A model generated the notes under the pieces. It saw only the letters and a list, made by a program, of their open reading frames with translations, ran no database searches and had not been told where the DNA came from. 64,000 nt of DNA from Candidatus Calditenuaceae archaeon HR02. GTDB taxonomy: Archaea > Thermoproteota > Nitrososphaeria_A > Caldarchaeales > Calditenuaceae. How positions within the stretch are numbered: position 1 is the stretch's first letter; each line of letters begins with the position of its first letter. Made by a program: the position numbers and the translations under genes. Positions 3,133 through 25,589 of this stretch are shown here, in pieces. The stretch spans positions 9,048-73,047 of the forward strand of contig BEHE01000007.1 of the NCBI GenBank assembly GCA_002898395.1. Reading direction: 5' to 3'.

Positions 3133-4350
3133 TCACTCGAGGCTGTGCATCATCCGGAGTGCCATTACTATGCCGCCCAGATATAGGGCAGAGATGGCAA
3201 TTGTTGCGAGTGGTGTGCCAGGCGACCCGGCTAGGAACCAGGAGACCCTTAGCACGTTGCCGGCGTTGAGAAGGGCTGCAGGGTATAGTGTGAGGCCGGC
3301 GTAAGGGATTCTCGCCGACATTAGTCCAGGCATCAGTATTGGCGCGTAGGCGAGGATCATGTTGCCTATAAACCCGATGGCTATAGAGTGTATGTATGCG
3401 TCCCTGAGAGTGTACCATAGCGGATGCGCCAGCAGCAGGCTGACCGAACTCGACGCAGATAAGAGACACCCTGCTAAAAGCCAGATTGACGCAACCCTGT
3501 ACAGCGCCGAGAAGTATAGATACCTGACCCTATCCCTTTCCCTCATCCGCGCGTACTGCTCGCCTGACTTGACCCGTCTGAGGGCGTCGACAGAAACCAC
3601 CCAGACAGCCGATGCCAGCAGATACCCTACGGATGCGGCCAGCTCCAGGGACTCGCTGTGAAGGAGTGCCGCTGCCGAGGCCGCTGCAGAGGATGCTGTG
3701 TGTAGTGGGGTGACCAGCCACCAAGCCCTCCTCCTCAGTTTAGTGTCCACCCGGAAGTGGACCGTCCTTATCCCAACACCCATTACCATTCCAGCTGGAG
3801 CACCTAAGAGGAGTATCAGTAGTAGGCCTGGTCTGCCGAAGGCATGAGCGCTCTCAAGCTCAGCGAAAATTGTTAGGGCTAAGGAGAGAGGCATAAGTGT
3901 CATCGACGCAGATATGAGTGGGTCGGCTGCGGCCAGAGGGCCGGAGGGCCTACCCAGCGCCCATACGGAATAGAAGGCTGCAGAGGATGTACCTGCTAGA
4001 GCAGCTAGATAGCTGAAGAGCCAGGCCACAGTACCTGGCTCCGCAAAAGTGAAAAACCATACACCTACGGTCATGACTATGAGGGAAAAGACCCTGAGGC
4101 CGAGATAACTCGAGGGTTCCACGTTTTTGAAGCGCTGGACAAGAACCATCGCCACAGAGACTATGAAAACGTAGACGAATCCAAAGATCATTAGTTTGGG
4201 GTGTACCAGTGCTGACGGAGTGAAGGGTAGGGCGCCTGAGAGTGAGAGAAGCCACACCGCACCTAGAACAGCCCCTAGAACGCCGCTAATTGTTGCAAAA
4301 GACACCCCAAGTATGAGTACTAGTCGGGCAGACCGGAGTCTCTGCTCCAA
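3133..4350 (-). CDS. Polytopic membrane protein, function unknown, convergent with the oxidase genes
   Basis: A 405-aa ORF that is strongly hydrophobic with more than 10 predicted transmembrane helices. I recognise no family motif. Confidence 0.4.
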   Translation of the reverse strand: MEQRLRSARLVLILGVSFATISGVLGAVLGAVWLLSLSGALPFTPSALVHPKLMIFGFVYVFIVSVAMVLVQRFKNVEPSSYLGLRVFSLIVMTVGVWFFTFAEPGTVAWLFSYLAALAGTSSAAFYSVWALGRPSGPLAAADPLISASMTLMPLSLALTIFAELESAHAFGRPGLLLILLLGAPAGMVMGVGIRTVHFRVDTKLRRRAWWLVTPLHTASSAAASAAALLHSESLELAASVGYLLASAVWVVSVDALRRVKSGEQYARMRERDRVRYLYFSALYRVASIWLLAGCLLSASSSVSLLLAHPLWYTLRDAYIHSIAIGFIGNMILAYAPILMPGLMSARIPYAGLTLYPAALLNAGNVLRVSWFLAGSPGTPLATIAISALYLGGIVMALRMMHSLE

Positions 4351-5829: not shown

Positions 5830-7128
5830 TCAGCCGGGCTGTCCCCTGAGTTTCTCGGCCCTCTCCCTCATCAACCTCCTCAACTCGCTGATATCCCTAG
5901 GTATAACGAGTGCAAGCACCGTGAAGAAGACTCCACAAACAATCCATGTGGAAGAGGATATGTAGAGTATTCCAAACCCTAGGCCGTAAACGTCGGCCAG
6001 ATATCCGGCTATAAGTGGTGCTGTCGACGAGCCTGCGGACTCGAATATAGAGAGGAGAGAGTATGCCGAGCTCCTCGCCTCGGGCTGTGTTATGTCTGTG
6101 ACCGATGCGGCTACGTTTGGACCTGCCATCGGCAGAATGAATGAGGTTACCGTCCCCAAAATTATGAACCCATTGACATCTTCAACGGGCCATGTCAATG
6201 TGATGTAGATGGTTAGTGCGGACAGAAACACGACTACTGCACCCACTATCGCGCGCCCACTAGGTATCCTTGAGAAAAGAGCGTCGCCAATAGCACCTCC
6301 AGCGAAATTACCTAAGATCATTACAACCAACCATATGAACATGGCGAAGAGTGCCGTCACTTCATCAAACATTCTCTCCCTCAACATGTATGTGAAAACC
6401 CACGCTTGGAGTGTTGTCCAGGGAAAAACGCCGAAGAAGCCCTGTAGGCTGAGGAACATCATCGACGGCTTCTTCAGCGGGCCAAATATTTCTTTAAACC
6501 TTATTTTGTATAACTCCTCCTTTATTGTCAGGCCTGTTAGCTCAGGTTCTGAGCTTCCCCTCGGCACATCCTTTACAGCAAAGTATACGATTGCTGCAGT
6601 CAATATGCCTAGGCCCCCAGTTATCAGGAAGAGGAATCTCCAACCATACGCGTAGCCTATCAAGACTCCGAGGGTTGTCCCTACCAATGCTCCGGTTGCG
6701 CCCGTTGCTCCGATAAGCCCGAGAGGCTTACCCCTTTTCTTCGGGAGGAAGTAGTCGCTTATCAGACTCTCAATGCCGGATGGAGGTGTGTTGTCTATCC
6801 CTGTCAACGTCCTTGTTACAAAGAATTCTGCGAAGCTTCGTGGCAGTGTATTGAGCCATGTAGTGAATCCCCAGATGACGCCTGCGATGCTTATCAGGAG
6901 CCTCCTCGAATACCTGTCAAAGAGATACCCCCAGACAGGGTAGAGAGAAACGGATAGGACGGCGGTGGCCGTTATTAGCGCACCGCCATAAACATACGTG
7001 ATCTGGAACTCGTCCAAGATTTGAGGAAAGACAACCGAGATAACATAGATATCAGCGATGTGAAGAGATTGAAAGATGAACAGGATAATCGCCACAAACC
7101 AAGCATACTTTAAAGAATATTGGGGCAT
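5830..7128 (-). CDS. MFS transporter
   Basis: 432 aa with 12 hydrophobic segments, MFS-like loop motifs and a basic cytoplasmic tail. Confidence 0.65.
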   Translation of the reverse strand: MPQYSLKYAWFVAIILFIFQSLHIADIYVISVVFPQILDEFQITYVYGGALITATAVLSVSLYPVWGYLFDRYSRRLLISIAGVIWGFTTWLNTLPRSFAEFFVTRTLTGIDNTPPSGIESLISDYFLPKKRGKPLGLIGATGATGALVGTTLGVLIGYAYGWRFLFLITGGLGILTAAIVYFAVKDVPRGSSEPELTGLTIKEELYKIRFKEIFGPLKKPSMMFLSLQGFFGVFPWTTLQAWVFTYMLRERMFDEVTALFAMFIWLVVMILGNFAGGAIGDALFSRIPSGRAIVGAVVVFLSALTIYITLTWPVEDVNGFIILGTVTSFILPMAGPNVAASVTDITQPEARSSAYSLLSIFESAGSSTAPLIAGYLADVYGLGFGILYISSSTWIVCGVFFTVLALVIPRDISELRRLMRERAEKLRGQPG

Positions 7129-7598
7129 ACGCGGACATTAGTGAGCTTCTTATAGTCCTGTATAAGGCTTACCTCACATAATGCAAACAACATCAAGAGG
7201 AGATGGCGTCCCCGCGGCCCGAATTAAATAAAGAATGTCAAAAAAGTATTACCCGAGTAAGTTTTCTAAGTTTAGAAGCATATTTAGTATTGAGCTATTA
7301 GCTATAGTCAGCGACAATGGAGTTGCCAAACCAACGTTATCAAATGTAATAGCGGAGATTTACCTAGACAATCTTCAGGACGCTCAGACAAAGTCGGGAG
7401 AATAAGTACAATAGATTATAACATAACAGAACGGCCTTATCAAAAATCAGATAAATACTCATCACCAGCCATGCCTCGGCCTAGCGGCATAGATAAAAAG
7501 CAATCCACCTACCGTATGGATGGGTGCTCTAGCGAGTGAAACATAACGCAGGGGTCTTCAGCCGAAGCGGTGGAGAGAGCCCTTCACAGTACTTCTCC

Positions 7599-8646: not shown

Positions 8647-8953
8647 GGGGGCGTGCGGCCCGTAGCCCTCCTTCTGTTTTAGGCGGGATTGGTCTTCTCG
8701 GCTCTCCGCGGGCCTCGCCGGCGCTTCTCATCGGCCCGGCGCGCCTTTCCCCGTCAGGGTCGCCCGTTTCATCCATTCTCCACCACTCGTCGCCGCCTCT
8801 GGTTGGCGGGTCAACCTCATCTGCGGTGGAGGGGTCTCGTTTCTGTGGCGTTGCCGTGGGTCTCCCCGCCCACCTCGCGGTGGCTGACTGCACCGGTTGG
8901 GGGGAGGAACTTCCTCGGGAGCTACCCCGTGGCCCGCCCGGCCGCTCGCCCCC
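8647..8953. ncRNA. GC-rich (about 70%) block of about 307 nt closed by a terminal stem; candidate structured RNA, identity and strand unknown
   Basis: The 5' end GGGGGCGTGCGGCC can pair with the 3' end GGCCGCTCGCCCCC. There are internal long stems such as CTCCACC...GGTGGAG. The only ORFs are low-complexity Arg/Pro-rich ones overlapping on both strands. The block sits in a 520-bp gap between folP and xdhC. Confidence 0.3.
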
Positions 8954-20831: not shown

Positions 20832-21282
20832 TTACGTAGAACCACCAATCAATATGATATAAACGTGTCTAAACCACGCCAGCTTAAAAGCAGCATTATA
20901 GAAAGTGGTGGCGAGGTGTGTGGAGCGTTTTAGCGTAGGCCACGCCCGACCGTCTAAGCGGCTCGGGCGATTGGGAGTGGCGCGCTGAGGGCGTCCGGCC
21001 TAAGCCTCCGCCCGTACACGCCCACCCCATCAACCCCCTCTTCTAGGGGAGCCCTCGTCGGGGCCCAAGGCCCGTTGCCAGGCCCTATAGGCCCCGATTG
21101 GCCGCCTATTTTTGGGAGTGGCTTCGGGCTTAGATGCTTTCAGCCCTTATCCACAGGGGCGCGGCTGCCCGGCGCCGCCCTGTAGGACGACCGGTAAACC
21201 GTTGGCCCCGGCCCTCCGTTCCTCTCGTACTAGGAGGACCTTTCCCTCAGGCGGCCCGCACCCCCAGTAGGTAGAAACCGAT

Positions 21283-21325
<43 letters not shown>

Positions 21326-21959
21326 AGGCGAGCAGCCTCACCCTTGGCCCCTGCTGCGAGGCCAGGAGGGGAAGAGCCGACATCGAGGTACCAAGCCGCG
21401 GGGTCGATGGGGACTCTCGCCCGCGACGAGCCTGTTATCCCTGGGGTAACTTTTCTGTCACCACCGGCCCCCACTGGTAGGAGCCGATGGATCGCTAGGC
21501 CCGGGTTTCCCCTCAGGACCCCTTGCGTTCGAGGGTCCTGTCAGGCCGGCTTATGCCCTTGCACTCTACAGCGGGTTTCTGTCCCGCCTGAGCCGACCTT
21601 TGGGCTCCTCCGATATCTTTTCGGAGGAGTGCCGCCCCAGCCAAACTGCCCACCAGCCGTTGTCCCAGGGTCAGGCCCTGGTTAGCGGGGCAGTCCGGAG
21701 TAGCCGGTGTTACATTGGCGCCTCCCCAGGCCCCCGGAGAGACCTGGATCGACGGCTCCCGGCTACGCTATGTACTCCAGACCACTCCGCAGCAACTGGC
21801 TGCAGTAAAGCTCCACAGGGTCTTCTCTCCCCACTGGGGGTTCGTGGACTGTTCGCCCACGTTATGTGGGTTCACGGGGCTCCGGGCCGGGACAGTGGGG
21901 CCCTCGTTGATCCATTCATGCACGTCGGAACTCACCCGACAAGGCATTTGGCTACCTTA

Positions 21960-22700
21960 AGCATGCCCGACCGAATGGTCGGGGTTGGACCATATCATCA
22001 CCCATTAAGGGTGCGCGGCGTATGGTCTCTGAGGATCCCGCCCTCAACTAATATTTTCCGGAGTTTCTCCGCCTTTTCAGGGTGTCTGAAACCCACCTTC
22101 TCCGAGAACTTCTCCACATTGTCCCACCCCATCACGGTTAGCCTCCATTGATAGTGTCTTCCCCATGTGTGGGGTTTTTTACGGTTATAGGTAGATGATA
22201 TCTCGTTTAACTGCAGTATGTGGTGTGCCTCTACAAGCACTTTTTTCGCGACCATGTCGATGCTGACGTAGGGATAGCGAAACTTCTTCATGCCCTGAGT
22301 CTGAACATCTATCCCGCAGTATCCTTCACTGTCGAACAGCCCCTTCACGACGTCGATATCGTGTTTAAACAATTCCGGTATCTGCGCGCTGACGAGCTTC
22401 CGCCCCTTCGGGAACCCGATCCTCAACAAGAAGTCATGTACCTTCCTAACATTCGTGGAGACTATGTAGAGGCTTTTACTTGCGCGCCGTATGTTTGGCT
22501 TGACTCCGAAAAGCTCTTCAACCGTGGCGGCGATAAAGTTGGCGAACTCGAAGTTAGGGTCTCGGCAGAAGACCGTGTAATAGTTGCCGTAGACGCCTCC
22601 GTCTCCCAGCATCACTCCAATGAGGTAGGCTAGACTCATCTGCTGTCCGCTGACCTTCAGCCTTTATAGCTGTTTCACAGGGCGGTTTCCTGCGGGTCGG
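21960..22700 (-). mobile_element. rRNA intron 1 (archaeal BHB-type, domain IV, just 5' of the GGTAGC...AAGGTAGCC block) carrying a homing-endonuclease ORF
   Basis: rRNA sequence conservation breaks between about 22700 and 21960 and resumes with CTTAAGGTAGCC. The segment contains a full LAGLIDADG ORF. Boundaries are approximate. Confidence 0.6.
21998..22639 (-). CDS. LAGLIDADG homing endonuclease (double-motif, intron-encoded)
   Basis: Motif 1 LAYLIGVMLGDGG and motif 2 VVKGLFDSEGY. 213 aa, the size of I-DmoI/I-PorI-class enzymes. Confidence 0.85.
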   Translation of the reverse strand: MSLAYLIGVMLGDGGVYGNYYTVFCRDPNFEFANFIAATVEELFGVKPNIRRASKSLYIVSTNVRKVHDFLLRIGFPKGRKLVSAQIPELFKHDIDVVKGLFDSEGYCGIDVQTQGMKKFRYPYVSIDMVAKKVLVEAHHILQLNEISSTYNRKKPHTWGRHYQWRLTVMGWDNVEKFSEKVGFRHPEKAEKLRKILVEGGILRDHTPRTLNG

Positions 22701-23444
22701 ATTCACGGTGCTACGGGATTGTTACCCGCGCGGGGTACCCATAGCCTCCTCCTTCCCCGCATACAGCCGCGTTTAACGACCCCCTTGAACTTGAGGGTCA
22801 GAGTTACCCCCGGCGCTAACCGGCCCTTATCCCGGTTGGACCCGGGGTTCAGGTACCGGTGCTGGCCAGGATTGAGGAGCCGTTCAAAGCCTTTCGGCCT
22901 AGCGGCTCCCTATGTTTTTATTAAACAGTCAGGACCCCCTTGTCACTGCGACCTACCAACCCACCCTCACCGGGCAGGAAGGCAGGCACCCCTTCTCCCG
23001 AAGTTACGGGGCCAATTTGCCGAGTTCCCTAGCCCGGAGTAACCCCAGACGCCTTGGCCTTCTCAGCCAGGGGCACCTGTGTCGGATCTAGGTACGGTCT
23101 CTCGGGATCGTTCCGGGCTCCCTTTTCACTGGCCCCAGGGTCCAGCCGAAGCGGCCTTAAGGCCGCCCCATCCCTCCATTCACCTGGTTCTCGCCATTAC
23201 GGCTCTCCCCAGGCTTGGGAGGTTAGACAGGGCTACGGCCCTGCTCGGCCTTACCTGAGGCGTCGGGAGCCCGGCTTGCGTCGCCGCACCTACCCGAGAG
23301 GCACCGGAATCTTAACCGGTTTCCCCTTCGGCCTACCCGGTTAAGGTCGGCCTTAGGACCGGCTTACTCCCGGCTGACGACGCATTGCCGGGAAACCCGT
23401 GCCCTTCCGGCGGAGGGGATATGGGGAGAGGTCGCAGGACCGTG

Positions 23445-24005
23445 TTCTCCCAAAAAGCGAACAGGTCAAGAAGGAAGGTATTGTAAACTCTGATTGAAAG
23501 TGTCCCGAATTTTGAACGTGAACTCCGTAAGCCCCACCTAACTGAAGGCTTACGGAACTGTGATAATGGTATGTTTAACAAGTTAGACCAGTATTCCTCC
23601 AGTTCCTTCACCCTGTCCGTCCACTCGTCCTTGCGGAGCTTGATTTGTAGCCTAGGCCTTAGCTCGCTTCTCGCTACTCCGAGTGTTTCGAGGAAGTTTA
23701 CCATAGCGAGTAGCTTGTTAGGATCGCTGTTGACGAATTCGAACCTCGTCTTCACAGTTTTAGGTCTTTTAGTGCCTTCACCAGCATAAAGACCAAGAAC
23801 GTACCGAATAGCACCGCTGAGACGTAACGGCGAATCTTCATTGCGCCTACGCGGCCGTTCCCGTACTTGAACCGAAGAGTCACCTTATCGTCCTCTACGG
23901 TCTTCTTAAGTACTTTGGTGTGGTCTAACGTCTCCGGAATGAGCTCTGCTAGGTCTACGTAGCTCATCCTTTAAGTAGAGTTACGTGACAACAAGTAGTT
24001 AAAAG
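23445..24005 (-). mobile_element. rRNA intron 2 (domain III region), about 560 nt, with a decayed endonuclease ORF
   Basis: AT-richer insertion between exon sequences GAGAGGTGCAGGGCCGTC (5') and GGTCCTGCGACCTCTCCCC (3'), which are mutually complementary and form a helix around the junction. The flanking exon sequence aligns to conserved domain III blocks. Confidence 0.5.
23455..23967 (-). pseudogene. Degenerate, frame-split homing-endonuclease remnant inside intron 2
   Basis: Two adjacent minus-strand ORFs in different frames (23752-23967 and 23333-23755). The second has a segment, DPNKLLAMVNFLETLGVARSEL, that resembles the second LAGLIDADG helix region of I-DmoI (NKALLEIVSRWLNNLGV). No intact first motif is present. 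Confidence 0.35.
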
Positions 24006-25198
24006 TTTGACGGCCCTGCACCTCTCTTTCCCACCCCTCTTCGCTGTCTACTACCACCGGGATCTACATTAGCGGCCGGTCCACGGGACCTCACGGCCCC
24101 GCTTCTACCCAACCGCTACGCCCCCCTACCCCCACCCACGCAGCGCGTGAGTGAGCCCGGGTTTCGGCGGCCCGCTTAGACCCGTCAATTTTCGGGGCCC
24201 CCATCCTCGGCGGGTAAGCTGTTACGCACTTCTTAGCTGATGGCTGCTTCTAAGCCTACAGCCCCGCTGTCTCAGGATGGAGACGCCCTTTGGTTTGTCA
24301 CTTAGCGGGCACTTAGGGGCCTTAACCCGCGGTCTGGGTTGTTCCCCTCTCGGTCCCGGAGCTTACCCCCGGTACCCCACTCCTGGGATCTACGGTGCCC
24401 GCGGATTCGGAGTTCGAAAGGAGAGTGGAGCCTCATCGGCCCCTTGCTCCCCCATCGGTGCTCTACCCCGCGGGCAGCCTCCCCCAGGGCTGTCCTGCGA
24501 GACACTTCGGGGGGAACTAGCTATCACCGGGCTCGATTAGCTTTTAACCCCTAGCCCCAGGTCAGGGGACCGATTTGCACATCAAGACCCCTATTCGGGC
24601 CTCCACCAGGGTTTCCCCTGGCTTCGCCCTGCCCAGGGCTAGATCGCCCGGTTTCTAGCCTCACGGGCGTGACTACAGGCCCTTTCAGACCCCGCCCCTC
24701 GCCGGAGCACACTCCGGCTGCGGGCATGTCGGTTTCCCCACGCCTACGGGCTTTCAGCCCTTAGGCTCGCCACACCCGTGAACTCCCCGGCCCGTGATTC
24801 AAGACGGAGTGCACGACCCTGGGATTGTCCCCACTCGCCCCTCACCGGGGCTTCGCAGGGAATGCCCTTTCGGGCCGTGCTCGTCTGTTACCAGCCGGTT
24901 TCAGGCGCTTTTCACCCCCCTCTCGGGGTACTTTTCACCTTTGGCTCACGCTACTGGTCCACTATCGGTCTTGGGACGTATTTAGCCTTGGAGGCCAGTG
25001 GCCCCCAACTTCCCGCACCATATCCGAGGTGCGGTACTCGGGGACCGGAGCATCGCCCCTCCAGCCTTCGCCTACGGGGCTATCACCCTCTCTGGCCCCC
25101 CATTCCAGGGGAGTTCGGCTCAGCATTCAGGGCGGGCCTCCGGCCCCATAACCCCACACTCCCCCCGAGTTAACCTCGGGGGGTTCGGTTTGGGCTGC

Positions 25199-25232
<34 letters not shown>

Positions 25233-25589
25233 TTTGATTTCTTTTCCTCCCCCTACTTGGATGCTTCCGTTCGGGGGGTTCCCGATCCCGGACTGAAGGC
25301 CCGGGAACGAGGTGGCCGAAGCCACCCCAGGAGATCCCATTAGGAGATCCCCGGATCAACGCCCGCCTGCGGCTACCCGGGGCTTATCGCAGCTTGCCAC
25401 GTCCTTCTTCGGCGCCCAAGCCGAGGCATCCACCGGCTGGCGTACCCCCGCTTAGTGCCAAGGCGCGGCCTACTTCGCCACGCTCCACACACCTCTGCGG
25501 CGCGGTCATAGGAAAGTATTAGCCTCCTCCCGCATTCATGCCCCTCAGGACTTCATGGCTGAGGAGCAAACATCTCCGTGCGCAATAGA

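Follow-up and report, generated by a model that had tools for sequence, protein, structure and literature searches.

What interrupts domain III of the 23S ribosomal RNA (rRNA) gene of Candidatus Calditenuaceae archaeon HR02, and what has become of the gene that this interruption carries? The window analysed here is the whole 64,000-nucleotide (nt) stretch of contig BEHE01000007.1 (positions 9,048 to 73,047, assembly GCA_002898395.1), which belongs to a metagenome-assembled genome (MAG; HRbin02). An initial annotation, made from the letters alone, had interpreted an AT-richer block of this 23S rRNA gene as its second intron, presented by a bulge-helix-bulge splice motif and containing only decayed remains of a homing endonuclease gene. 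Our results make it very probable that the block is a bulge-helix-bulge intron located in the loop of helix 47 (H47), and that it carries a divergent single-motif LAGLIDADG gene disabled, in this assembly, by one 1-nt deletion.

The insertion in helix 47 and its splice motif

The 23S rRNA gene is matched over its full length by the Rfam model of the archaeal large-subunit (LSU) rRNA (RF02540, 2574 bits) and measures 4506 nt against 2987 model positions, two large insertions accounting for most of the extra length. In a local covariance-model alignment, one of these insertions places 609 nt (window 23419-24027) against a single model position, inside the loop of the model hairpin GugggG-UGAGAAu-CcccaC. 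This hairpin is helix 47 (E. coli 1276-1294), with which domain III begins; in the numbering of E. coli K-12 rrlB, its 7-nt loop is interrupted between positions 1287 and 1288, which gives the site designation L1287. The archaeal consensus of the Rfam LSU model lacks the insert. The AT-richer character of the interruption noted in the initial annotation is confirmed by a G+C content of ~0.48-0.50 in the insert versus ~0.62-0.67 in the flanking rRNA. In contrast, the limits proposed there (23445-24005, about 560 nt) were some 20-25 nt too tight on each side. A group I or II intron was rejected, as neither these nor any other Rfam family matched at E<=1 in 23400-24050; likewise, ribozyme covariance models gave no match at the gathering score across the window. 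The intron and the elements of its splice motif are located as follows.

20952-25457, minus strand: 23S rRNA gene (Rfam RF02540).
23420-24027, minus strand: bulge-helix-bulge intron of 608 nt in the H47 loop (covariance-model alignment, fold, homologous introns at the identical site).
24034-24039, minus strand: 5' strand of the exon helix H47, GAGGGG, pairing with 23413-23418 (alignment, fold).
23413-23418, minus strand: 3' strand of the exon helix H47, CCCCUC (alignment, fold, covariation).
24030-24033, minus strand: 5' strand of the central helix of 4 base pairs (bp), UGGG, in the 5' exon, pairing with 23422-23425 (fold).
23422-23425, minus strand: 3' strand of the central 4-bp helix, CCCA, at the 3' end of the intron (fold, covariation).
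24027-24029, minus strand: 3-nt bulge AAA with the 5' splice site, cut predicted between 24028 and 24027.
23419-23421, minus strand: 3-nt bulge UAU with the 3' splice site, cut predicted between 23420 and 23419.
24010-24026, minus strand: 5' strand of the intron helix h', GAGAGGUGCAGGGCCGU, the first "exon flank" of the initial annotation (fold).
23426-23443, minus strand: 3' strand of the intron helix h', ACGGUCCUGC(G)ACCUCUC, the second "exon flank" of the initial annotation, which also encodes the last residues of the open reading frame (ORF).

The minimum-free-energy fold of the joined intron ends is a canonical 3-4-3 bulge-helix-bulge. Read from the exon, it consists of a 6-bp helix (GAGGGG/CCCCUC), the UAU bulge on the 3' strand, a 4-bp helix (UGGG/CCCA), the AAA bulge on the 5' strand and the 17-bp intron helix h' (GAGAGGUGCAGGGCCGU / ACGGUCCUGC(G)ACCUCUC). 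The splicing endonuclease cleaves after the second nucleotide of each bulge, and the cut positions were placed by this canonical rule together with the restoration of the 7-nt consensus loop UGGGAAU. Excision at these positions leaves GAGGGG-UGGGAAU-CCCCUC, a hairpin whose 6-bp stem and 7-nt loop agree exactly with the consensus. The two mutually complementary sequences that had been taken for exon flanks, GAGAGGTGCAGGGCC and GGTCCTGCGACCTCTC, do pair with each other, but in the fold they belong to the intronic helix h' and not to the exons, and the splice sites lie outside them. The proposal that a bulge-helix-bulge motif presents the intron is nevertheless borne out, both by the fold and by covariation.

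For the latter we compared seven distinct sequences: that of the window, those of two named Caldarchaeales MAGs and those of four metagenome contigs. All seven (100%) keep the pairing of three core helices, namely the exon helix, the central helix and the initial 7 bp of h', and compensatory double changes are found in seven pairs of these helices, including two pairs of the exon helix H47 and four of the first seven pairs of h'. As examples, UGGG/CCCA changes to UGAG/CUCA, and GAGAGGU/ACCUCUC to GAGGGGG/CCCCCUC and GAAAGUC/GACUUUC. The covariation score is 0.352 versus 0.171 in column shuffles, none of the 500 shuffles reaching the observed values, and sliding the partners by 1-3 columns reduces the pairing to 50-70%, against 96% observed. 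At the level that sequence analysis can reach, the assignment of this block to the archaeal bulge-helix-bulge introns is settled.

The exon stem, the two bulges, the 4-bp helix and the intron helix would together constitute a substrate for the archaeal tRNA/rRNA splicing endonuclease. Following the known pathway, this enzyme would cut both bulges and the exons would be ligated, with the normal H47 loop restored, while the intron would be released, probably as a circle. A heterotetrameric splicing endonuclease, together with rRNA introns, has been reported in the Aigarchaeote C. subterraneum (PMC3082918). The block could instead be a permanent expansion segment, or another unspliced insertion kept in the mature 23S rRNA, given that helix tips on the ribosome surface tolerate insertions. 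This would have to accommodate a perfect and covarying splice motif, an excision product that restores the 7-nt consensus loop exactly, a protein-coding gene under purifying selection within the block (see below), a G+C content of 0.48 where hyperthermophile rRNA has ~0.65, and an archaeal consensus model without the block; we rejected it on the splice motif, the covariation and the coding gene, and consider its probability negligible. Alternatively, cleavage at the bulges might not be followed by religation, leaving a fragmented 23S rRNA similar to those produced by bacterial intervening sequences, and H47 would be able to hold the two fragments together. However, an RtcB-type ligase normally joins the products of archaeal bulge-helix-bulge cleavage, and all characterised archaeal rRNA introns are, to our knowledge, spliced; fragmentation thus appears very improbable here.

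The intron gene, its frameshift and its homologues

What does the gene inside this predicted intron look like? The two minus-strand ORFs described in the initial annotation are both present, in different frames, at 23752-23967 (71 residues) and 23333-23755 (140 residues as listed), and the coding region is indeed disrupted in the assembly. GBC71051.1, from Ca. Calditenuaceae archaeon HR02, is the same protein as the product of the 71-residue ORF. The frame of the 140-residue ORF is open upstream of its listed GTG, where it reads ...AIRYVLGLYAGEGTKRPKTVKTRFEFVNSD... and includes a LAGLIDADG-type motif. In the intact homologues P0001-P0005 (E 1e-74 to 2e-39), the two parts form one polypeptide, ...IRRY(I/V)PA(T/I)LFGY(V/A)(L/I)GLYAGEGTKRP..., and what would be one 183-codon gene is split in the window by the loss of 1 nt at 23804/23803, the third base of a Gly codon: at the break, the homologue DNA reads TTY-GGN-TAY-GTN and the window TTC-GG-TAC-GTT. 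With the base restored, the ORF begins at 23967 and its 183 codons reach the very end of the intron. Its parts are listed below.

23803-23967, minus strand: ORF part 1, N-terminal beta-rich region, beginning with the ATG at 23967 and ending with ...AVLFG; the frame as assembled runs to a stop at 23752-23754.
23803-23804, minus strand: frameshift site, GG-TAC in the window and GGN-TAC in the homologues (protein alignment and DNA comparison).
23420-23803, minus strand: ORF part 2, LAGLIDADG-like domain, YVLGLYAGEG... to ...RPLPI; the frame crosses the 3' splice site and meets its stop in the exon at 23333-23335.
23774-23803, minus strand: LAGLIDADG-like motif YVLGLYAGEG, putative catalytic Glu codon at 23777-23779; Pfam LAGLIDADG_3 aligns here.

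The initial annotation had seen in these ORFs only decayed fragments of faint similarity. In contrast, there is exactly one lesion, and the repaired product shares 62-70% identity with the five intact homologues and 45% with the most distant homologue. The ratio of nonsynonymous to synonymous substitution rates (dN/dS) among the homologues is ~0.10-0.18, and the differences between the window and L001 (a Ca. Calditenuis fumarioli locus) number 41, 30 and 107 at codon positions 1, 2 and 3, showing an enrichment in third positions. The missing base aside, the ORF keeps every residue that is invariant in the six closest homologues (P0001-P0006). These patterns indicate that purifying selection has long acted on the gene and that its only lesion is very recent, unless the lesion is an assembly error. 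A programmed -1 frameshift at the break was rejected, as UUC-GGU-ACG is not a slippery heptamer and all homologues have a plain in-frame codon at this place.

The end of the gene is peculiar, as no member of the family has a stop codon inside the intron. Counted from the ATG, every intact copy fills the intron to its last nucleotide with exactly 183 codons; the frame stays open beyond this point, and a stop is met in the exon 4 codons on, in the lineages with exon CCGUAG, or 28 codons on. In the window this exon-terminated stretch is 23333-23420, and the equivalent stretch is found in L001, L009, L010, L011, L013 and L019. Gene callers accordingly predict tails of translated rRNA on the intron proteins (e.g., ...SPPPEGHGFPGNASSAGSKPVLRPTLTG), and the more distant relatives P0007, P0009 and P0013 also end in translated 23S exon sequence. 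Non-intronic relatives end ~10 residues past a conserved FW motif; therefore, the exon-encoded tail is not part of the domain.

Homology searches found the same element, inserted at this very position of the rRNA, in Ca. Calditenuis fumarioli (L001, L006-L008), in Ca. Wolframiiraptor gerlachensis (L002) and in metagenome contigs (L009-L013, L016-L024). These introns measure 604-738 nt, and their insertion site is identical in 13 of 13 loci; a genome scan matched only two of 185,579 species representatives. The ORF is intact in six distinct introns, singly frameshifted in three (the window, L020 and L021) and multiply frameshifted in two (L002 and L023). The initial annotation had suggested that the two introns of this 23S rRNA gene would give a snapshot of the homing-endonuclease life cycle, and this series fits that idea, better across the family than within the window alone. 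Beyond the family proper, the distant relatives of Saccharibacteria, Ryanbacteria and Acidimicrobiales (28-34% identity) are encoded not in rRNA insertions but by free-standing genes with flanking tRNA genes (L003 3550-3903, L004 3385-3723, L005 4001-4357), and other bacterial relatives have N-terminal helix-turn-helix domains (P0036, P0041, P0047). In an ENA contig, the H47 intron ORF is followed only ~500 nt downstream by another ORF with a LAGLIDADG_3 match (L011 1210-1779), which may belong to a different 23S intron.

If the deletion were an assembly error or a minority variant, the endonuclease gene would be intact and both introns of this 23S rRNA gene would carry live endonucleases. The origin of the window from a MAG means that a 1-nt deletion could have arisen in assembly. 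The otherwise complete conservation of invariant residues and the low dN/dS of the family also favour an intact gene, as do the six distinct homologous introns with intact ORFs. However, the deleted base lies outside any long homopolymer (GG[N]TAC), where a typical indel error is not expected, and the independent single frameshifts found elsewhere in the genes of L020 and L021, together with the multiple ones in L002 and L023, show that real decay is common in this family. We consider an intact gene unlikely, although it is an explanation to be kept in mind.

The LAGLIDADG-like protein and its putative target

Does this gene encode a homing endonuclease? LAGLIDADG homing endonucleases share a core with an alpha-beta-beta-alpha-beta-beta-alpha fold, in which a beta saddle binds DNA, and their cleavage of the intron-less allele leaves 4-nt 3' overhangs. 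All 20 aligned members of the family have E or D at the acidic position of the motif, and the following G is invariant. Pfam LAGLIDADG_3 weakly matches 11 of these 20 in the same region (best E=6.9e-5), of which only P0009 (23.5 bits) passes the cut-off. A profile search of 1.8 billion representatives recovered 405 relatives at E<=0.001, and a search of NCBIfam retrieved nothing. The AlphaFold model of P0002 is confident (predicted local distance difference test, pLDDT, 89); in it a beta-rich N-terminus of ~50 residues precedes a helix at 51-62, which corresponds to the motif, and an alpha/beta domain. As pointed out in the initial annotation, there is a resemblance to the second LAGLIDADG region of I-DmoI, which is real at the motif level, with GLYAGEG here and GLYVAEG in I-DmoI. 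The evidence on LAGLIDADG homology is mixed: the conserved motif and the weak matches of family members to LAGLIDADG_3 argue for it, and the failure of the window protein to reach the gathering score of this profile argues against it. The protein may be classified as a divergent single-domain LAGLIDADG-type protein.

A single LAGLIDADG motif implies a homodimer acting on a pseudo-palindromic ribosomal DNA target, and by analogy with I-Vdi141I and I-CreI the protein would be a homodimeric homing endonuclease. A precedent for a homodimeric, single-motif endonuclease encoded in an archaeal rRNA intron is I-Vdi141I (PMC2602781). Because it encodes a hairpin, the sequence of the intron-less site, GGGGTGGGAA|TCCCCTCCGC, has symmetry about the insertion point at 7 of 10 positions, and we infer that this symmetry fits a homodimer. 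The corresponding feature is given here.

GCGAAGAGGGGTGGGAATCCCCTCCGCCGGAAG: intron-less H47 DNA, the putative homing target.

In the mechanism that we propose, the 183-codon protein, composed of the ~50-residue beta-rich N-terminus and the LAGLIDADG-like domain, would act as a homodimer and cut the intron-less H47 DNA, which is pseudo-palindromic at the insertion point, leading to the spread of the intron. The copy in the window would be at the very first step of decay, with its deletion just upstream of the catalytic motif, unless this deletion was introduced by the assembly.

Several observations nevertheless weigh against this mechanism. The match of the window protein to Pfam LAGLIDADG_3 (15.8 bits, E=0.017) is below the cut-off of 22.5, and an hhalign comparison with the bona fide LAGLIDADG_3 protein of the neighbouring intron was not significant. 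Foldseek found nothing significant in the PDB, and PDB searches with the protein sequence and two profiles retrieved no solved relative. Moreover, the topology predicted for P0002 has a helix between the first two strands and not a simple hairpin, and the lack of a stop codon inside the intron is, as far as we know, unusual for archaeal intron endonuclease genes. The frameshift is read from the assembly, and splicing, circularisation and DNA cleavage are predicted from the sequence. The protein could be something other than a DNA endonuclease, either a LAGLIDADG-derived nucleic-acid binder (WhiA-like or maturase-like) or an unrelated fold. However, E or D at the catalytic motif position is kept in all members, bulge-helix-bulge introns need no maturase, and the occupation of one exact rRNA site in several lineages, combined with repeated independent degeneration, is the signature of a homing element and not that of a protein beneficial to its host; such an alternative function is therefore improbable, without being negligible.

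Expression, the first intron and comparison with known systems

How could a gene without its own stop codon be expressed? Each of the 10 distinct homologous introns has one TATA-like hexamer (TTTTAA, TTTAAA, TTTATA, TTATAG or TTATAA) located 31-41 nt upstream of the ATG. The shuffling P for this position is ~0.012-0.019 per lineage, and the spacing holds in L009 despite a leader of 129 nt, compared to ~60 nt in the others. In the window the box is found at the following position.

23999-24004, minus strand: TATA-like box TTTTAA, candidate promoter, 37 nt upstream of the ATG and the only such hexamer in the intron.

The first intron of the same gene has a TATAAA ~29 nt upstream of its ATG at 22639. 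The box of the H47 intron may be an intron-internal archaeal promoter. A transcript initiated there would start downstream of the 5' strand of the splice motif, so that no bulge-helix-bulge could form and the transcript would be unspliceable, and its translation would cross the boundary between intron and exon and stop only within 23S exon sequence; if this is true, it would explain why stop codons inside the intron are lacking. Translation from the excised intron, instead of from an internal transcript, is a possible alternative, and in a hypothetical circular intron the frame meets a stop 9-27 codons past the junction. A stop selected through circularisation was rejected: in several copies (e.g., L001 and L010) it overlaps the A/T-rich TATA-like box, and thus looks like a by-product rather than a selected feature. 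We only tentatively advance, as rather doubtful, the idea of a conserved expression design (internal promoter, unspliceable mRNA and exon-terminated translation) coupled to an uncharacterised family of single-domain LAGLIDADG-like, H47-targeting proteins with an N-terminal beta domain. If true, this combination would set the element apart as a novel form among archaeal mobile introns, with a meganuclease of new specificity.

The other large insertion, the first intron, confirms that the H47 intron is the second of this 23S rRNA gene. It lies on the minus strand at ~21960-22792 (~830 nt), at the classical site in the L1927 region of domain IV. The initial annotation had assigned it a live endonuclease, in agreement with its intact ORF of 213 residues with two LAGLIDADG_3 stretches (E=3e-11). 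Both introns share their host gene, strand and general design, including a TATA-like box, ~30 nt upstream of the ATG in the first intron. In contrast to the H47 intron ORF, that of the first intron is intact, has two LAGLIDADG_3 stretches (monomeric type) and stops 36 nt short of the intron's 3' end, and no homology between the two proteins is detectable with hhalign. A simple cofold of the first intron showed no exact splice motif. This intron is absent from the Ca. Calditenuis fumarioli MAG JANVYR01 (L001) and present in GCA_038741315 (L007), the shared 23S sequence being 99.9-100% identical, a polymorphism that suggests recent mobility of the first intron. In L007, LSU positions 3526-3752 (locus ~6989-7215), following the L1927 intron, contain a 127-nt exact duplicate of the downstream exon and ~100 nt of other sequence, which may reflect either a true duplication or an artefact from co-assembling alleles with and without the intron. 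Outside the rRNA gene, at ~12 kb, an archaeal RNase P RNA gene (RF00373, 156.8 bits) is located at 8651-8949 on the minus strand.

Thermoproteales and Desulfurococcales are well known to harbour rRNA introns of the bulge-helix-bulge type that encode LAGLIDADG homing endonucleases, and the archaeal 23S intron sites known so far are mostly in domains IV and V. In the Aigarchaeote C. subterraneum, examples of 16S rRNA introns have been reported (PMC4496867; PMC3082918). The H47 intron resembles Vdi141.L1927 of Vulcanisaeta distributa, which encodes I-Vdi141I (PMC2602781), and the Desulfurococcus mobilis intron, which encodes I-DmoI: all are of the bulge-helix-bulge type, interrupt a conserved part of the 23S rRNA, measure ~600 nt nearly filled by one ORF, and reside in a (hyper)thermophilic host of the Thaumarchaeota, Aigarchaeota, Crenarchaeota and Korarchaeota (TACK) group. 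I-Vdi141I, in addition, also has a single LAGLIDADG-type motif. They differ in location, the H47 intron being inserted in domain III (E. coli 1287/1288) and the others in domain IV/V at sites such as L1927, and in the H47 intron ORF running without an in-intron stop through the 3' splice site. Furthermore, the H47 protein has no sequence-detectable kinship to the solved enzymes and possesses an extra N-terminal beta-rich region of ~50 residues. PF14528 (LAGLIDADG_3) proteins with a variable N-terminal region outside the domain have been described in archaea and in bacteria of the candidate phyla radiation (CPR) (PMC11270868). The H47 family shares this combination of an N-terminal extra region and one LAGLIDADG_3-like domain, as well as having CPR relatives; in contrast, most of its members fall below the Pfam cut-off, and its bacterial relatives adjoin tRNA genes and are not rRNA insertions. 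No report of an intron at the H47 (L1287) site was found in the searchable literature, which is itself incomplete.

Therefore, the H47 element is of the same kind as the known archaeal rRNA introns, with an endonuclease lineage that has been missed by curated libraries (Pfam, NCBIfam). It extends the archaeal 23S intron sites to domain III (helix 47, L1287) and defines a small, coherent family of mobile introns in Caldarchaeales ("Aigarchaeota") genomes and metagenome contigs. It also explains several "hypothetical proteins" called within 23S rRNA genes, the tails of which are translated rRNA exon. The missing in-intron stop and the conserved TATA-like box raise the question of how archaeal intron endonucleases are expressed, and the chance of either the expression design or the enzyme family proving distinctive is modest. 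Finally, with intact copies beside others that bear one or several frameshifts, all at the same site, the family provides a clean natural example of the cycle of gain, decay and loss of homing endonucleases.
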